A stretch of DNA of 41,292 nucleotides from a virus. Lineage: Duplodnaviria; Heunggongvirae; Uroviricota; Caudoviricetes. The notes under the pieces were generated by a model. The model searched no databases. It was not told the origin of the DNA and saw only the letters and a program-made list of their open reading frames with translations. Made by a program: the position numbers and the translations under genes. How positions within the stretch are numbered: the first letter of the stretch is position 1; every line of letters starts with the position of its first letter. Below are positions 9,446-40,084 of this stretch, piece by piece. The DNA lies in IMG/VR virus record IMGVR_UViG_2718217795_000002, positions 1-41,292 of that record, one strand, 5' to 3'.

Positions 9446-9661
9446 ATGAGCAACCTACGAAAATATCGAGAGTCACTGAATATCTCTCAAACAACACTTG
9501 CTAAGGCAGTTGGATGCACACAGGGAGCTATCGGACATTGGGAATCTGGTCGTCGCTTCCCAGACCTTAAAACATGCCGTGCTCTTGTTGAGTGCCTAAA
9601 CAAGTTAGGCGCAAAAGTCAGTCTTGATGACGTGTTCCCGCCGGAACACAAAGCCGCTTAA
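9446..9661 (+). CDS. cro: Cro-like HTH repressor, 71 aa
   Basis: ATG with GGAGG SD; short HTH protein divergent from cI; track ORF 9275-9661 trimmed. Confidence 0.8.
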   Translation: MSNLRKYRESLNISQTTLAKAVGCTQGAIGHWESGRRFPDLKTCRALVECLNKLGAKVSLDDVFPPEHKAA

Positions 9662-9670
9662 GACATTCTA

Positions 9671-9701
9671 GCTCTTACACATCACAGCCCTGAAAAAGGG
9701 C
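9671..9701 (+). promoter_or_regulatory. nutR site: boxA GCTCTTACA (9671-9679) and boxB GCCCTGAAAAAGGGC (9687-9701)
   Basis: Matches recalled lambda nutR; located between cro and cII. Confidence 0.8.
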
Positions 9702-9777
9702 ATTACCAGAAACAAATCTCTATGGTTTTGCGTTTCTTTGCGAAGCCAACTCTATCTAATTATTAAGGAAATTATCT

Positions 9778-10059
9778 ATGGGTACTATTGCAACTAAAAG
9801 CAAGAAAGCGGCTCGCATCGAGTCAGCCTTGCTGAACAAACTGGCACTGATGGGGCAGAAGACATTCGCTCGAGCGATGGGGGTTCCTGAATATCAGGTA
9901 AGCCGATGGAAGAATGGTTTCTTCTCGCAGGTAAGCATGATGCTGGCTGTTCTGGAATACGGAATCGAAGACGATGAAATGGCTGAATTGACTAAGCGGC
10001 TTGCCGATTACCTGACAAAAGAAAAAGCCCCGAAGAACGGCGAATTCTTCGAGGCCTGA
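9778..10059 (+). CDS. cII: CII transcriptional activator, 93 aa
   Basis: RIESALLNKLA...SRWK...MLAVLEYG motif strongly resembles lambda CII. Confidence 0.85.
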   Translation: MGTIATKSKKAARIESALLNKLALMGQKTFARAMGVPEYQVSRWKNGFFSQVSMMLAVLEYGIEDDEMAELTKRLADYLTKEKAPKNGEFFEA

Positions 10060-10094
10060 TTGTAGAAAGACTGGATCAATCCACAGGAGTAATT

Positions 10095-10259
10095 ATGACA
10101 AAACGTCGTAAGAAATACCAGGAAAAAGAAGAGATTCGACACCCTGATTCACCTGAGGGATTAGTGGTAGCCGCAGCAAATAACAGGGCGTTCGCAGAGC
10201 GCCTTGTTGGTGTTTACAGACTAGCCAAAGCAGGAGTGAAACATGGGCGTCGTTAAGTT
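10095..10259 (+). CDS. Small basic hypothetical protein, 54 aa (below ORF-track cutoff)
   Basis: ATG at 10095 with AGGAG SD at 5-nt spacing; overlaps the O start by 17 nt. Confidence 0.3.
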
Positions 10260-11064
10260 AGCTGATTACAGGCCTCAACTGGAGGTCGTGGAGCATCGCG
10301 TGGCAGATACCGAAGATGGTTTCATGCGCGTTGCTAACGAGATTACCGACAGTCTGCTGATGGCTGATTTAACCGTCCGGCAGCTGAAGGTGATGCTCGC
10401 TATCATGCGCAAGACATACGGATTCAATAAGCCGATGGATCGACTCACAAACACGCAGATAGCAGCCATGACAGGTATTCATCACACTCATGTTTGCGCT
10501 GCCAAGCGCCAGCTTATTGAGCGTAAATTCCTCATTGCTGATGGCGTGAAAATCGGAGTGAACAAGGTGGTTTCTCAGTGGATTAGCCAGGACAGCTTAA
10601 CATTAGCTAAAACAGCTAATAAAACATTAGCCAAGTCGGCTAATGGGTATAAGCCAAGTCAGCTAAACACAAAAGACAATATACAAAAGACAATAAATAC
10701 AAATACCCCCTTACCCCCTAACGGGGGCGGCGATGGGCAGGTTAAACCTGAACGTCGCAAGGCAGAACGAATCGACTACGAATCCTTCCTGAACGCTTAC
10801 AACACCGAAGTCGGTGACAGACTGCCACACGCTGTTGCGGTCAACGAGAAACGCAAACGCCGCCTGAAGAAAATCATCCCGCAACTGAAAACGCCAAACG
10901 TGGACGGTTTCAGAGCGTATGTCAGGGCGTTTGTGCATCAGGCCAAGCCGTTTTACTTCGGAGACAACGACACGGGCTGGACGGCTGATTTTGATTACCT
11001 GCTGAGAGAAGACTCGTTAACGGGAGTTCGGGAAGGGAAGTTTGCAGACAGGGGGATTGCATGA
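10243..11064 (+). CDS. O: Replication initiation protein O, 273 aa
   Basis: N-terminal [28 protein letters not shown] resembles lambda O; ori iterons inside the gene. Confidence 0.85.
10583..10705. repeat. Origin of replication: four ~17-bp dyad iterons (10583, 10604, 10627, 10650) followed by an AT-rich stretch
   Basis: Repeats ttagccaggacagcttaa / ttagctaaaacagctaa / ttagccaagtcggctaa / taagccaagtcagctaa spaced 21-23 bp, then AT-rich 10667-10705, inside O as in lambda ori. Confidence 0.6.
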
Positions 11065-12437
11065 GACAGGATATCGAAGCGAGCGTTATCGGTGGCCTGC
11101 TGATTGGTGGATTAACACCAACCGCCAGTGACGTTCTGGCAACGCTGGAGCCGGAAGCGTTTTCAATTCCGCTCTACCGGAAAGCCTTCGAGGTTATCCG
11201 CAAGCAGGCGCGAAACAGAAACCTAATCGACGCACTGATGGTTGCCGAGGCGTGCGGAGAGGAGCATTTCACGTCAATCCTGATGACCAGCAAAAACTGC
11301 CCGAGTGCCGCAAACCTGAAGGGATATGCCGGAATGGTCGCGGATAACTATCACCGCCGTCTGGTGCTGGAAATCATGGATGAAATGCGTGAACCAATTC
11401 AGAGCGGAACCATCGACGCATCGAGTCAGGCGATGGATGAACTTGTAAAACGTCTCTCAGCTATCAGAAAGCCCCGTGACGAGGTTAAACCTGTACGGTT
11501 AGGGGAAATCATCACTGACTACACTGACACGCTTGACAGGCGTCTGAGGAACGGAGAAGAGTCAGATACCCTGAAGACCGGAATCGAAGAACTTGACGCT
11601 ATCACCGGAGGGATGAACGCAGAAGACCTGGTGATTATCGCCGCTCGTCCTGGTATGGGGAAAACCGAACTGGCGCTGAAGATTGCCGAAGGCGTTGCAA
11701 GCCGCGCTATTCCTGGTTCTGACGTCCGGCGCGGAGTGTTGATTTTCTCGATGGAAATGAGCGCATTGCAGATTGCAGAGCGAAGCATTGCCAACGCCGG
11801 GAGGATGTCGGTTAGCGTGCTGCGAAATCCTGCATCGATGGATGACGAAGGCTGGGCGCGTGTTGCTAACGGCATGAGTCAGCTTGCAGATTTGGATGTA
11901 TGGGTAGTCGATGCCTCGCGGTTATCGGTCGAAGAAATACGCTCAATCGCAGAACGGCACAAGCAGGAAAATCCAAACCTGTCACTCATCATGGCGGATT
12001 ATCTTGGCCTGATTGAGAAGCCGAAAGCAGACCGCAACGACCTCGCAATTGCTCACATCTCCGGAAGCCTGAAGGCGATGGCGAAAGACCTGAAAACGCC
12101 TGTTATCTCCCTGAGTCAGCTTTCGCGCGATGTTGAGAAGCGACCAAACAAACGCCCGACAAACGCAGATTTGCGTGATTCAGGAAGCATTGAACAGGAC
12201 GCAGACTCAATCATCATGCTCTATCGGGAAGCGGTATATGACGAGAACAGTAGCGCCGCACCATTTGCTGAAATCATTGTGACAAAAAACCGTTTTGGCT
12301 CGCTTGGTACGGTTTACCAGCGGTTCTGCAACGGACACTTTGTTGCATGTGACCAGGATGAAGCCAGACAGATTTGCACAGCATCAAATGCGCCCGCTGC
12401 GCGTGGCAGACGATATGCACAAGGGGCTGACGTATGA
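11061..12437 (+). CDS. Replicative DNA helicase, DnaB family (phage-encoded), 458 aa
   Basis: Walker A motif ARPGMGKT and DnaB-like architecture; ATGA overlap with O. Confidence 0.9.
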
Positions 12438-32520: not shown

Positions 32521-32945
32521 TGGAACTGTGGCTGACGGTGAACGGTAAACGCACCTGCGCCAGCGCACCGCTGGATCCGCTGACCCGCGCCGTGGTGATT
32601 TCCCTGTTTACCTGGCGGCGGGCGGAGCCTGATGACAACGCCGACGTCCCGATGGGATGGTGGGGGGATACCTGGCCTGCGGTACAGAATGACCGTTACG
32701 GCTCCCGACTGTGGCTGCTTCAGCGCAGCAAACTGACCAATCAGCTGGTGCAGACGGTAAGGGGATATATCCGCGAATGCCTGCAATGGATGATTGATGA
32801 CGGCGTGGTGTCCCGTATTGATCTGGATATCCGCCGCACCGGGATTAATGAGCTGGGTAACAGTATCACCCTCTGGCGTCGTGATGGACCAGTAATGATT
32901 TCTTTTGATGATCTGTGGAGTGCGATAACGCATGGCGGACAGTGA
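32517..32945 (+). CDS. Baseplate protein (Mu gp46-like), 142 aa
   Basis: ATGA coupling; conserved position. Confidence 0.75.
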   Translation: MMELWLTVNGKRTCASAPLDPLTRAVVISLFTWRRAEPDDNADVPMGWWGDTWPAVQNDRYGSRLWLLQRSKLTNQLVQTVRGYIRECLQWMIDDGVVSRIDLDIRRTGINELGNSITLWRRDGPVMISFDDLWSAITHGGQ

Positions 32946-33990
32946 ATTTCAGCGCCCGACGCTGGCAGAAAATATCAGTATGCTCCGTAACGATTTATTC
33001 GCCAGGCTGGACGTCAGCGACACGCTCCGGCGCATGGATGAAGACGTGCGGGCAAAGGTGTATGCGGCGGCGCTGCATACGGTTTACGGGTACATCGATT
33101 ATCTGGCAATGAATATGCTGCCTGACCTGTGCGATGAGTCCTGGCTGGCGCGACATGCTGCGATGAAACGGTGTCCGCGCAAGGGGGCCACGGCTGCCAG
33201 CGGGTATATGCGCTGGGAAGGTGTCAGCGATGGCCTGAAGGTGACTGCCGGGAGCGTGATTCAGCGCGATGACCTGGTTCAGTACACGGCAACTGCCGAT
33301 GCAACCAGCTCCGGTGGTGTCCTGCGTGTGCCGATCACTTGCTCAACTACAGGCGCGGTCGGTAACGCTGACGACGGTACGGCATTAATCCTGGTCACGC
33401 CGGTGAATGGTCTGCCGTCTTCCGGTGTTGCAGATACCCTGACTGGCGGATTCGATACTGAAGATCTGGAAACGTGGCGCGCCCGCGTCATTGAGCGGTA
33501 TTACTGGACGCCGCAGGGCGGGGCTGACGGGGACTATGTCGTCTGGGCTAAAGAAGTGCCCGGCATTACCCGCGCATGGACATACCGTCACTGGATGGGA
33601 ACGGGAACTGTCGGTGTGATGATTGCCAGCAGTGACCTGATTAATCCCATTCCGGAAGAATCAACGGAAACGGCGGCAAGACAACATATCGGGCCACTGG
33701 CCCCGGTGGCAGGCTCTGATTTGTATGTGTTCAGGCCGGTGGCGCATAAAGTGGATTTTCATATCCGCGTGACGCCGGACACACCGGAAATACGGGCTGC
33801 CATCACCGCGGAGTTGCGTTCGTTCCTGCTGCGTGATGGTTATCCGCAGGGAGAACTGAAGGTGTCGCGTATCAGTGAGGCGATTTCCGGTGCGAACGGG
33901 GAATACAGCCATCAGTTGCTTGCACCGGCAGACAATATCTCCATTGCAAAAAATGAACTGGCGGTTCTGGGGACGATTTCATGGACGTGA
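32932..33990 (+). CDS. Baseplate J-like protein (Mu gp47-like), 352 aa
   Basis: Baseplate J family similarity. Confidence 0.85.
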
Positions 33991-38890: not shown

Positions 38891-40084
38891 TCACTCCACC
38901 TTTTCATCAAGCCAGTCCGCCCACCATTGCATCATTTCTCTGCGCTTATCGAGATACTGAGCATGGTTGTAAATTCCACGTACAGATCCGCCGTTGGCAT
39001 GTGCCAGTTGCACTTCAATGGCGTCGGCAGGCCATTCGTGCTCGTTCATAATCGTGCTGAATTCATGCCTGAATCCGTGACCGCTTTCCAGACCTTCATA
39101 GCCGATTTGTTTGATCACAAGCAATACCGCGTTCTCGCAGATTGGCTTCTTCTTATCGTTGCGCCCGGCAAAAACAAACTCTGATACTGGTTTGGTGATT
39201 GAGCTTAGCGTAGTGAGAAGTTCAACCACCTGGTCTGACATCGGGACCACATGAATTTTGCGTCCCTTCATCACATTGGCGTCAATGGTGATAATCCTGT
39301 TTTCAAAATCGACGTTCTTCCATTGCATGGAACGAAGCTCTTTTGTTCTTAGGGCTGTGTAGCGTAAAACCTTGGTGGCAATGAGCGATACGATACTTCC
39401 TGAAAATGTTGCCAGTGCTTTATTGAATGCCGGGATCTGGTCTGCAGGAAGAAACGGGAAGTTCTTCTTGCGGTATCCCTTCATGGCGTCAGCAAGGTCA
39501 GGTGCTGGGTTATATTTAGCCCTTCCGGTGACAATAGCGTAACGGAAAACCTCGCCGCATCTTCTGCGGGCTTTGTTGGCTCGCTCCATTGCACCGCGAT
39601 CTTCAAATCTGCGGATTACTTCCAGCAGTTGCATCGGCTCAATATCCTGAATCTCAAGACCGCCGATGATAGGTAAAATGTCGTCGTCAAACATTTTGGC
39701 AAGTTCAGTCGCATACCCTACAGACCATACTTGCTTCTTGTGCTCGTACCATTCTTTGTAAATCGCACTAAAGGAATTGTTGTTAGACGAAGCCTTTTTC
39801 GCCTTTACCGGATCGATGCCAACCGAGATGTCTTTCCTCGCAGTCCATGCCTTATCCCTTGCCTCCTGCAAAGTCATTAGCGGATATTTTCCTACGGTCA
39901 GGACTTTCTCCTTACCGTCAATCTTGTAGCGAAGCTGCCATACCTTTTTCCCTGATACAGGGACATAAAGGTACAGGCCATTACCATCGAGTAGGCGGTA
40001 TGGTTTTTCTTTCGGCTTAGCTGCTTCAATCTGCTTAACGGTGAGCATGGGTAAAAATCCGGTGGGTAAAATTATTTTATCCAC
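38891..40084 (-). CDS. intS: Tyrosine integrase, P4-like family (IntS-type, argW-specific), 397 aa
   Basis: N-terminal MLTVKQIEAAKPKEKPYRLLDGNGLYLYV...; C-terminal catalytic R..HxxR..Y region; adjacent to argW. Confidence 0.95.
   Translation of the reverse strand: MDKIILPTGFLPMLTVKQIEAAKPKEKPYRLLDGNGLYLYVPVSGKKVWQLRYKIDGKEKVLTVGKYPLMTLQEARDKAWTARKDISVGIDPVKAKKASSNNNSFSAIYKEWYEHKKQVWSVGYATELAKMFDDDILPIIGGLEIQDIEPMQLLEVIRRFEDRGAMERANKARRRCGEVFRYAIVTGRAKYNPAPDLADAMKGYRKKNFPFLPADQIPAFNKALATFSGSIVSLIATKVLRYTALRTKELRSMQWKNVDFENRIITIDANVMKGRKIHVVPMSDQVVELLTTLSSITKPVSEFVFAGRNDKKKPICENAVLLVIKQIGYEGLESGHGFRHEFSTIMNEHEWPADAIEVQLAHANGGSVRGIYNHAQYLDKRREMMQWWADWLDEKVE

Follow-up and report, generated by a model that had tools for sequence, protein, structure and literature searches.

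A putative lambda-type replication origin with its own iteron sequence inside the initiator gene O of an HK97-like phage module

In the present study, a replication region was analysed in a 41,292-nucleotide stretch of Caudoviricetes DNA (IMG/VR record IMGVR_UViG_2718217795_000002, positions 1 to 41,292; hereafter the window), and several features were observed at the locus. First, gene O, at positions 10243-11064 on the plus strand, encodes a replication initiator of 273 amino acids that was assigned by Pfam and by its identity with phage HK97; residues 19-113 match the full profile (1-95) of Phage_rep_O (PF04492, E 5.8e-33). Second, four dyad repeats (iterons), an A-rich block and an element of C and G runs follow one another inside this gene, after the region encoding the N-terminal DNA-binding domain (10243-10581, plus strand, residues 1-113), which is predicted by AlphaFold2 and Foldseek to be a winged helix. 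Third, the gene downstream of O (11061-12437, plus strand), the equivalent of gene P, encodes a DnaB-family replicative helicase of 458 amino acids (Pfam DnaB_C, 8.3e-78; DnaB N-terminal domain, 4.5e-13), and the HK97 counterpart is annotated as 'similar to DnaB'. As in P22 and HK97, the partner of O belongs to the DnaB helicase family and is not a loader of the lambda P type. Taken as a whole, the window represents a lambdoid phage or prophage of mosaic composition, the early region of which is HK97-like.

The four iterons, detected with a repeat finder and by pattern matching, are 18-bp units with the core TTAGCC-N5-RGCTAA, and no strand is assigned to them. Iteron 2 (ATTAGCTAAAACAGCTAA, 10602-10619) and iteron 3 (ATTAGCCAAGTCGGCTAA, 10626-10643) are perfect 6+5+6 dyads that both start at codon position 3, and iteron 1 (ATTAGCCAGGACAGCTTA, 10582-10599) and iteron 4 (ATAAGCCAAGTCAGCTAA, 10649-10666) are imperfect dyads that start at codon positions 1 and 2, respectively. 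Iteron 1 begins at the codon right after the conserved Trp113, and the same placement was observed in lambda, P22 and approximately 90 other loci. The start-to-start distances are 20, 24 and 23 bp, slightly outside the 21-23 bp given in an earlier note on this DNA. The pattern TTAGCYN5RGCTAA, with at most one mismatch, was matched four times in the 41,292 bases, each time within the array, compared with 0.23 matches expected from shuffles and a maximum of 2 in 100 shuffles. In an unsupervised scan for dyad arrays, in which 373 overlapping 330-nt segments were searched for any 6-nt arm followed, after a gap of 3-8 nt, by its reverse complement, three segments over the array reached a score of 8, and the next best score anywhere in the 41 kb was 4. 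The four palindromic repeats described in that note, and their excess over chance, are thus upheld by both the pattern count and the scan, and the array is the only one of its kind in the window. No fifth iteron was found flanking the array at up to 3 mismatches. In folding tests, iterons 2 and 3 formed stable hairpins (z -2.8 and -4.9, respectively), and no significant hairpin was obtained for iterons 1 and 4.

The array is followed by an A-rich, low-GC block of 39 bp (10667-10705, no strand), the presumed unwinding region according to its GC content, AT skew and homology. The GC content of 10660-10699 is 0.25, with an AT skew of +0.67, compared with approximately 0.5 GC in the flanks, in agreement with the AT-rich stretch that had been noted after the repeats. 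A 14-nt tandem repeat (ACAAAAGACAATAT / ACAAAAGACAATAA) occupies 10669-10696 within this block. The ACAAAAGA motif of the block recurs in the origins of lambda, P22 and even a Mannheimia phage. To the right of the block lies a C5-TTA-C5-TAAC-G5 element (10706-10727, no strand), composed of C5 at 10706-10710, TTA, C5 at 10714-10718, TAAC and G5 at 10723-10727. An element of C and G runs had already been recognised here and is real, whereas its right end lies at 10727 rather than at the 10730 first proposed.

The comparison with the lambda origin (J02459; iterons 39034-39118, dyad 39162-39189) bore out the proposal of a lambda-like organisation with a different iteron sequence. With annotated starts at 39034, 39054, 39078 and 39101, the lambda iterons are spaced 20/24/23 bp, exactly as in the window, and positions 10560-10760 of the window aligned without gaps to lambda 39012-39212, with 97 of the 201 columns identical and the differences mainly in the dyad arms. 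The columns common to both comprise the iteron centres, the spacers (TAAAACAT) and the ACACAAAAGACA block at the start of the A-rich region. In both phages, the region lies within the initiator gene right after the N-terminal domain, and four 18-bp dyads with CAAAAC-like centres are followed by an A-rich region and then by a dyad element, which is a candidate one in the window. However, the arms are TCCCTC/GAGGGA in lambda and TTAGCC/GGCTAA in the window, C5..G5 stands in the window where lambda has the right-hand dyad GTCAGAGAATTC/GAATCCTCTGAC, and the partner of the initiator is the P loader in lambda and a DnaB-family helicase in the window. At the protein level, residues 17-149 of O shared 42% identity with residues 19-152 of lambda O over 134 aligned residues, and the C-terminal parts are unrelated.

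The closest relative of the module is the pair of gene O (gp54) and gene P (gp55) of HK97 (AF069529, 29868-32062). The two O genes are 99.1% identical in DNA over 822 bp, and HK97 has the same 273-amino-acid O, the DnaB-type P, the upstream arrangement of orf53, cII and oop, and the four repeats, A-rich block and C/G element, the repeat region of the window matching the HK97 locus. Essentially no difference was observed within the module, whereas the rest of the window is another mosaic. The O gene of the window is also 98.7-99.4% identical to those of mEp213, HK446, HK544, Nil2, phage 2851, many Shiga toxin (Stx)-converting phages and Salmonella phage BIS08P22.

The relationship with P22 is that of a mosaic. 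In P22 (RefSeq NC_002371), a curated rep_origin, noted as 'similar to phage lambda', spans 32840-32984 in gene 18, with its left end at iteron 1 and its right end on the final G of C5..C5..G5. By homology, positions 10582-10727 of the window correspond to it, which places the right-hand end of the putative origin. The number and spacing of the iterons and the DnaB-type helicase partner (gene 12 in P22) are shared. The joint between the two lies at the end of iteron 4, from which point onward the DNA is identical, including the A-rich block, such that the right half of the P22 origin, from ACACAAAAGACAATATACAAAAGACAATAAATACAAATACCCCCTTACCCCCTAA, equals that of the window base for base. In the initiators, O and P22 gp18 are 51% identical over 259 residues and nearly identical from an 18-residue stretch onward, and the C-terminal parts are approximately 60% identical. 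In contrast, the N-terminal domains are only 43% identical, the putative recognition segment is GMAPTKCS in P22 and GIHHTHVC in the window, and the arms are TTTACC/GGTAAA in P22. The window thus belongs to the P22 18/12 - HK97 O/P subtype, with a gp18-homologous C-terminal part and origin right half and a DnaB-family helicase downstream. The P22 iteron TTTACC-N5-GGTAAA is not found in the window, the arms of which are TTAGCC/GGCTAA, and therefore its specificity is that of HK97 and not that of P22.

The earlier suggestion that the iteron sequence co-varies with O was borne out when approximately 95 loci were compared, 80 obtained from viral contigs with an alignment of six N-terminal domains as query and 14 from annotated phage records, the same dyad scan being applied inside each O gene. 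Among 68 unique O proteins and six more distant ones, the arm sequence tracked the type of the N-terminal domain and not the C-terminal part, and at least 10 distinct arm types were observed, each paired with its own domain type. The arms ATTAGCC-N5-AGCTAAT accompany the segment GIHHTHVC, or one close to it, in the window, HK97 and approximately 50 proteins whose N-terminal domains share 53-100% identity with that of the window, and TTAGCA..TGCTAA accompanies KHHTHCS in L073-L083. The arms ATTTACC..GGTAAA and the segment GMAPTKCS are common to P22 and L087, and ATCCCTC..GAGGGAT and KLPVKRCN to lambda and g341c. Single phages contributed TGTCACC..GGTGACA with RLPRQKVN (SEN22), TGTCTCT..AGAGACA with GLSRQNVN (Proteus Pm34), TGTTACC..GGnAACA with RISRSKAN (Erwinia Midgardsormr38) and GTGCCG..CGGCAC with GIRREHVS (Pseudomonas Ab31). 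The arms ACGGGAA..TTCCCGA, with a 21-bp spacing, are paired with GLSDTHVS in mEp237, PHB10 and a Hafnia phage, and TCCCGA..TAGGGA was found in a Mannheimia phage with a segment that was not reliably aligned. The 20/24/23 spacing recurs in P22, SEN22 and approximately 50 loci of the TTAGCC type.

Mosaic loci were decisive in this comparison. In L087, the C-terminal part is 100% identical to that of the window, whereas the N-terminal domain is 50% identical and the arms are of the P22 type (TTTACC..GGTAAA); conversely, in L005, L051, L069 and L081, the C-terminal parts are unrelated, the N-terminal domains are 59-65% identical and TTAGCC..GCTAA is kept. Moreover, L084 and Pm34 each share 53% identity with the window in the N-terminal domain, yet L084, with the segment GIHHTHVC, keeps TTAGCC, whereas Pm34, with GLSRQNVN, has other arms. 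These comparisons suggest a division into two cassettes: the first, which sets specificity, unites the N-terminal domain with the iterons and is inherited as a unit, and the second, in common with P22, consists of the A-rich block and C/G element together with the C-terminal part of O and the helicase. An attempt to pin the co-variation to the recognition helix gave a null result (partial Mantel r 0.09, p 0.22): the arm distance correlated with the helix segment at rho 0.39 (p 0.0015) and with the rest of the N-terminal domain at rho 0.58, and therefore the claim of co-variation is limited to the whole N-terminal domain.

Two further observations concern relatives of this domain. In L086 (IMGVR_UViG_3300006192_000033), with an N-terminal domain 50% and a C-terminal part 73% identical to those of the window, no dyad array was detected after the N-terminal domain (best score 2), and its origin may lie elsewhere or be differently built. 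In addition, many of the database proteins with exactly this N-terminal domain (P0001-P0013 and P0018-P0025) are only 150-200 amino acids long and end shortly past the iteron region, and some of the short proteins carry unrelated Pfam domains (PF05810, PF13333/PF13683 and PF11039); these may reflect an artefact of candidate selection or an origin at which breaks or recombination joints are frequent.

The constraint on the iteron arms acts on the DNA. Iterons 1 to 4 encode the peptides ISQDSL, LAKTAN, LAKSAN and KPSQLN, respectively. For the TTAGCC family, represented by 31 unique DNA sequences, the arms carry 1.79, 1.84 and 1.78 bits of information at codon positions 1, 2 and 3, compared with averages of 1.22 bits in the iteron centres and 1.19 in the spacers. 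The third codon positions of the arms are therefore as conserved as the first and second, which indicates selection on the DNA sequence, and the reading of the four repeats in three codon phases, together with this equal conservation, leads to the same conclusion.

The C/G element occupies the position of the dyad with 12-nt arms in lambda and is unrelated to it in sequence; in lambda and mEp237, the corresponding position holds another dyad. Of 84 unique O genes, 69 contain C5..C5..G5 at 37-40 nt past the ACACAAAAGA block, and it is kept where the downstream protein is unrelated (TPLPPNGG in the window versus PPKSPKGE in L005, and also in L048, L069, L088 and others). The runs are read in six codon-phase combinations. 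Within the element, proline is encoded by CCC in 35 of 52 codons, compared with 39 of 723 outside (p 2e-27), and glycine by GGG in 18 of 25 codons, compared with 291 of 1,373 outside (p 1e-7); the O sequences are related to one another, such that these p-values overstate their independence. In L069, CCTCCC-AA-GGGAGG represents a compensatory variant. Because of the codon bias and the codon phase, and not because of hairpin energy, C5..C5..G5 is probably a DNA-level element of these origins. A stable single-strand hairpin of C5 and G5 was considered and rejected, since the predicted energy of -5.4 kcal/mol differs little from shuffles (z only -0.51). No stated role for the element was found in the literature searched, and the curated P22 rep_origin merely ends on it. 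It is conceivable, with odds somewhat below even, that C5-N3..5-C5-N2..4-G5 is a separate functional DNA module and not just a Pro/Gly linker; such a module could restrict unwinding, as a GC clamp, or mark the place of helicase loading or entry.

The N-terminal domain of O was modelled with AlphaFold2 (residues 1-118, on a 25-sequence alignment), with a predicted local distance difference test score of approximately 86-94 for residues 31-110. The model contains helices at 32-40, 45-59, 70-77 and 81-93 and a beta-hairpin at 97-106, and the top Foldseek matches in the PDB are all winged-helix regulators of the MarR, CRP/FNR and IclR families, with weak scores (best E 4.5e-3). By sequence, no PDB relative was found at E up to 1. 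Residues 79-90, the type-specific segment, extend over the turn and into the first part of helix 81-93, the putative recognition helix in the model. A dimer of such winged-helix domains would fit a dyad with arms 11 bp apart centre to centre.

Herein, we propose that the locus is a theta-replication origin of an HK97-type lambdoid replicon, located in the linker-coding middle of the initiator gene O, with a probability of roughly 0.9. In lambda, O binds each iteron as a dimer, the resulting O-some stresses supercoiled DNA and opens a 40-bp A+T-rich region, and the N-terminal part of O is responsible for DNA binding and the C-terminal part for partner binding (PMC5043065, PMC6022878, PMC7466680). 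From homology with lambda, we infer binding, unwinding, helicase recruitment and origin activity at the present locus, as follows. Transcription from pR would supply the O protein, dimers of which would bind the four dyad iterons through their winged-helix domains, the TTAGCC/GGCTAA arms being one helical turn apart centre to centre. The four bound dimers would assemble into an O-some in which the DNA is bent and wrapped, and on supercoiled DNA this complex would open the adjoining A-rich block. The C-terminal part of O would then recruit the phage's own DnaB-type helicase, in place of the P loader and host DnaB used by lambda.

Several points weigh against this proposal. The literature search returned no experiment on this iteron type, and no origin is annotated at this place in the close records inspected, including HK97 and Nil2. 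The imperfect symmetry of iterons 1 and 4, the stability of the single-stranded C5/G5 hairpin, which is no greater than that of shuffled controls, and the structural matches of the N-terminal domain, none of which reaches E of 1e-3 or less and which indicate the fold class only, also count on this side. At the level of the recognition helix, moreover, co-variation is inseparable from shared ancestry.

Three other explanations were weighed. The array might be a relic, either a decayed prophage origin or the vestige of a phage that starts replication mainly elsewhere, for example by recombination-dependent or rolling-circle replication. The mosaic nature of the window, the first 25 kb of which are covered to at most 41% by any phage record, and the presence of the segment as prophage in 443 E. 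coli genomes are compatible with decay. However, O and the helicase (273 and 458 amino acids) are full length and match those of the plaque-forming HK97 at 99%, the iterons match the consensus, and diverged relatives retain the array under DNA-level selection, such that a relic is very unlikely. Even less probable is a mainly non-initiation role of the dyads, as sites of another regulator, as a control of copy number or incompatibility through titration of O, or as hairpin signals for host defence. Ectopic lambda iterons inhibit the replication of phages of the same type (PMC3349717), and a 2026 preprint reports that OLD binds lambda iterons, with hairpins formed by iterons in melted DNA as the proposed trigger; iterons 2 and 3 of the window fold as stable hairpins. 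Nevertheless, such roles follow secondarily from initiator-binding sites and do not compete with them as explanations, the arms track the initiator's own N-terminal domain, as predicted for the site of a cognate initiator, and iterons 1 and 4 lack significant hairpins. Least likely of all, a purely protein-level repeat in the flexible O linker (e.g. LAKxAN) without a role as DNA sites was suggested by the LAK(T/S)AN common to iterons 2 and 3 and by the low-complexity linker encoded between the two domains (model confidence is low past residue 110), and it was rejected on codon phase and third-position conservation, since the copies yield unrelated peptides in the three phases and the arms, unlike the centres and spacers, are equally conserved at all codon positions, while dyad symmetry is meaningless for a peptide and the spacing is unchanged with wholly different arms in lambda, P22 and SEN22.

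The proposed theta origin was also compared with more distant systems. The Stx phages 933W and P27 have the same family of origin within O, and O acts as a dimer (PMC7466680), whereas these phages have six iterons with lambda-type arms and a lambda-type P, compared with four iterons of another sequence in the window. Expanded arrays were also observed in relatives of the window type, with five sites in L042/L043 (one gap of 39 bp) and six in L082/L083, and with a lengthened O protein, in parallel with the six-iteron origins described for 933W and P27. The theta plasmids P1, F, RK2, R6K and pSC101 similarly have an array of initiator-binding repeats beside an A+T-rich unwinding region (PMC5043065); in contrast, the repeats of the window have dyad symmetry, which suits a dimer, and are located within the coding sequence of the initiator itself.

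The 181-bp ori segment is present in 443 of 5,426 complete E. coli genomes (approximately 8%), at 460 places, three of which are plasmid-borne, and two genomes have the segment twice. The presence of two origins of the same type in one cell raises the question of incompatibility. Among the E. coli records listed, the segment lies under a coding sequence named "replication protein". The origin is an ordinary one and already known, since HK97, which was sequenced in 2000, has it, as do hundreds of E. coli prophages. The searches made with the exact repeats, HK97 iterons and Nil2/2851 revealed no description of these particular repeat sequences or of this iteron type in the literature searched. 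Knowledge of the lambda origin design dates from the late 1970s, according to the passage of PMC5043065 that cites Grosschedl and Hobom 1979 and Moore et al. 1979, and the binding of different O-type proteins to different iterons within their own genes has been stated for lambda, P22 and L (PMC8022706).

These results show that a lambdoid origin can be recognised correctly from raw sequence. This origin type is also present in many Stx-converting phages, and the coordinates and the consensus might be used for its annotation. At least 10 types of N-terminal domain, with their arms on one fixed scaffold, represent a resource for the study of winged-helix DNA recognition, and the pairs of arm and domain might be used to choose initiator/origin pairs that should not cross-react. 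The split into two parts, with the joint at the end of iteron 4, provides a clean example of lambdoid mosaicism.

Some additional features were observed around the origin. Just right of the C/G element lies an imperfect 29-bp palindrome (10730-10758, no strand) with the core CAGGTT-A-AACCTG and 14-nt arms (GCGATGGGCAGGTT / AACCTGAACGTCGC) that are 79% complementary. Its size resembles that of the 28-bp lambda dyad; it is situated within the C-terminal coding sequence of O (QVKPE), where constraints on DNA and protein are not separable, and its membership in the origin is uncertain. Upstream of O, the CII gene and an S24/helix-turn-helix repressor (cI) were found, and NinB lies downstream. No Rfam family was detected over 9500-11500. 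The pO/oop block of lambdoid replication regions (33 bp, 10070-10102, no strand) matches the consensus of PMC3349717 exactly. This block overlaps the start of an open reading frame at 10095-10256 (53 amino acids, equivalent to HK97 gp53), the end of which extends 14 bases into the start of O.

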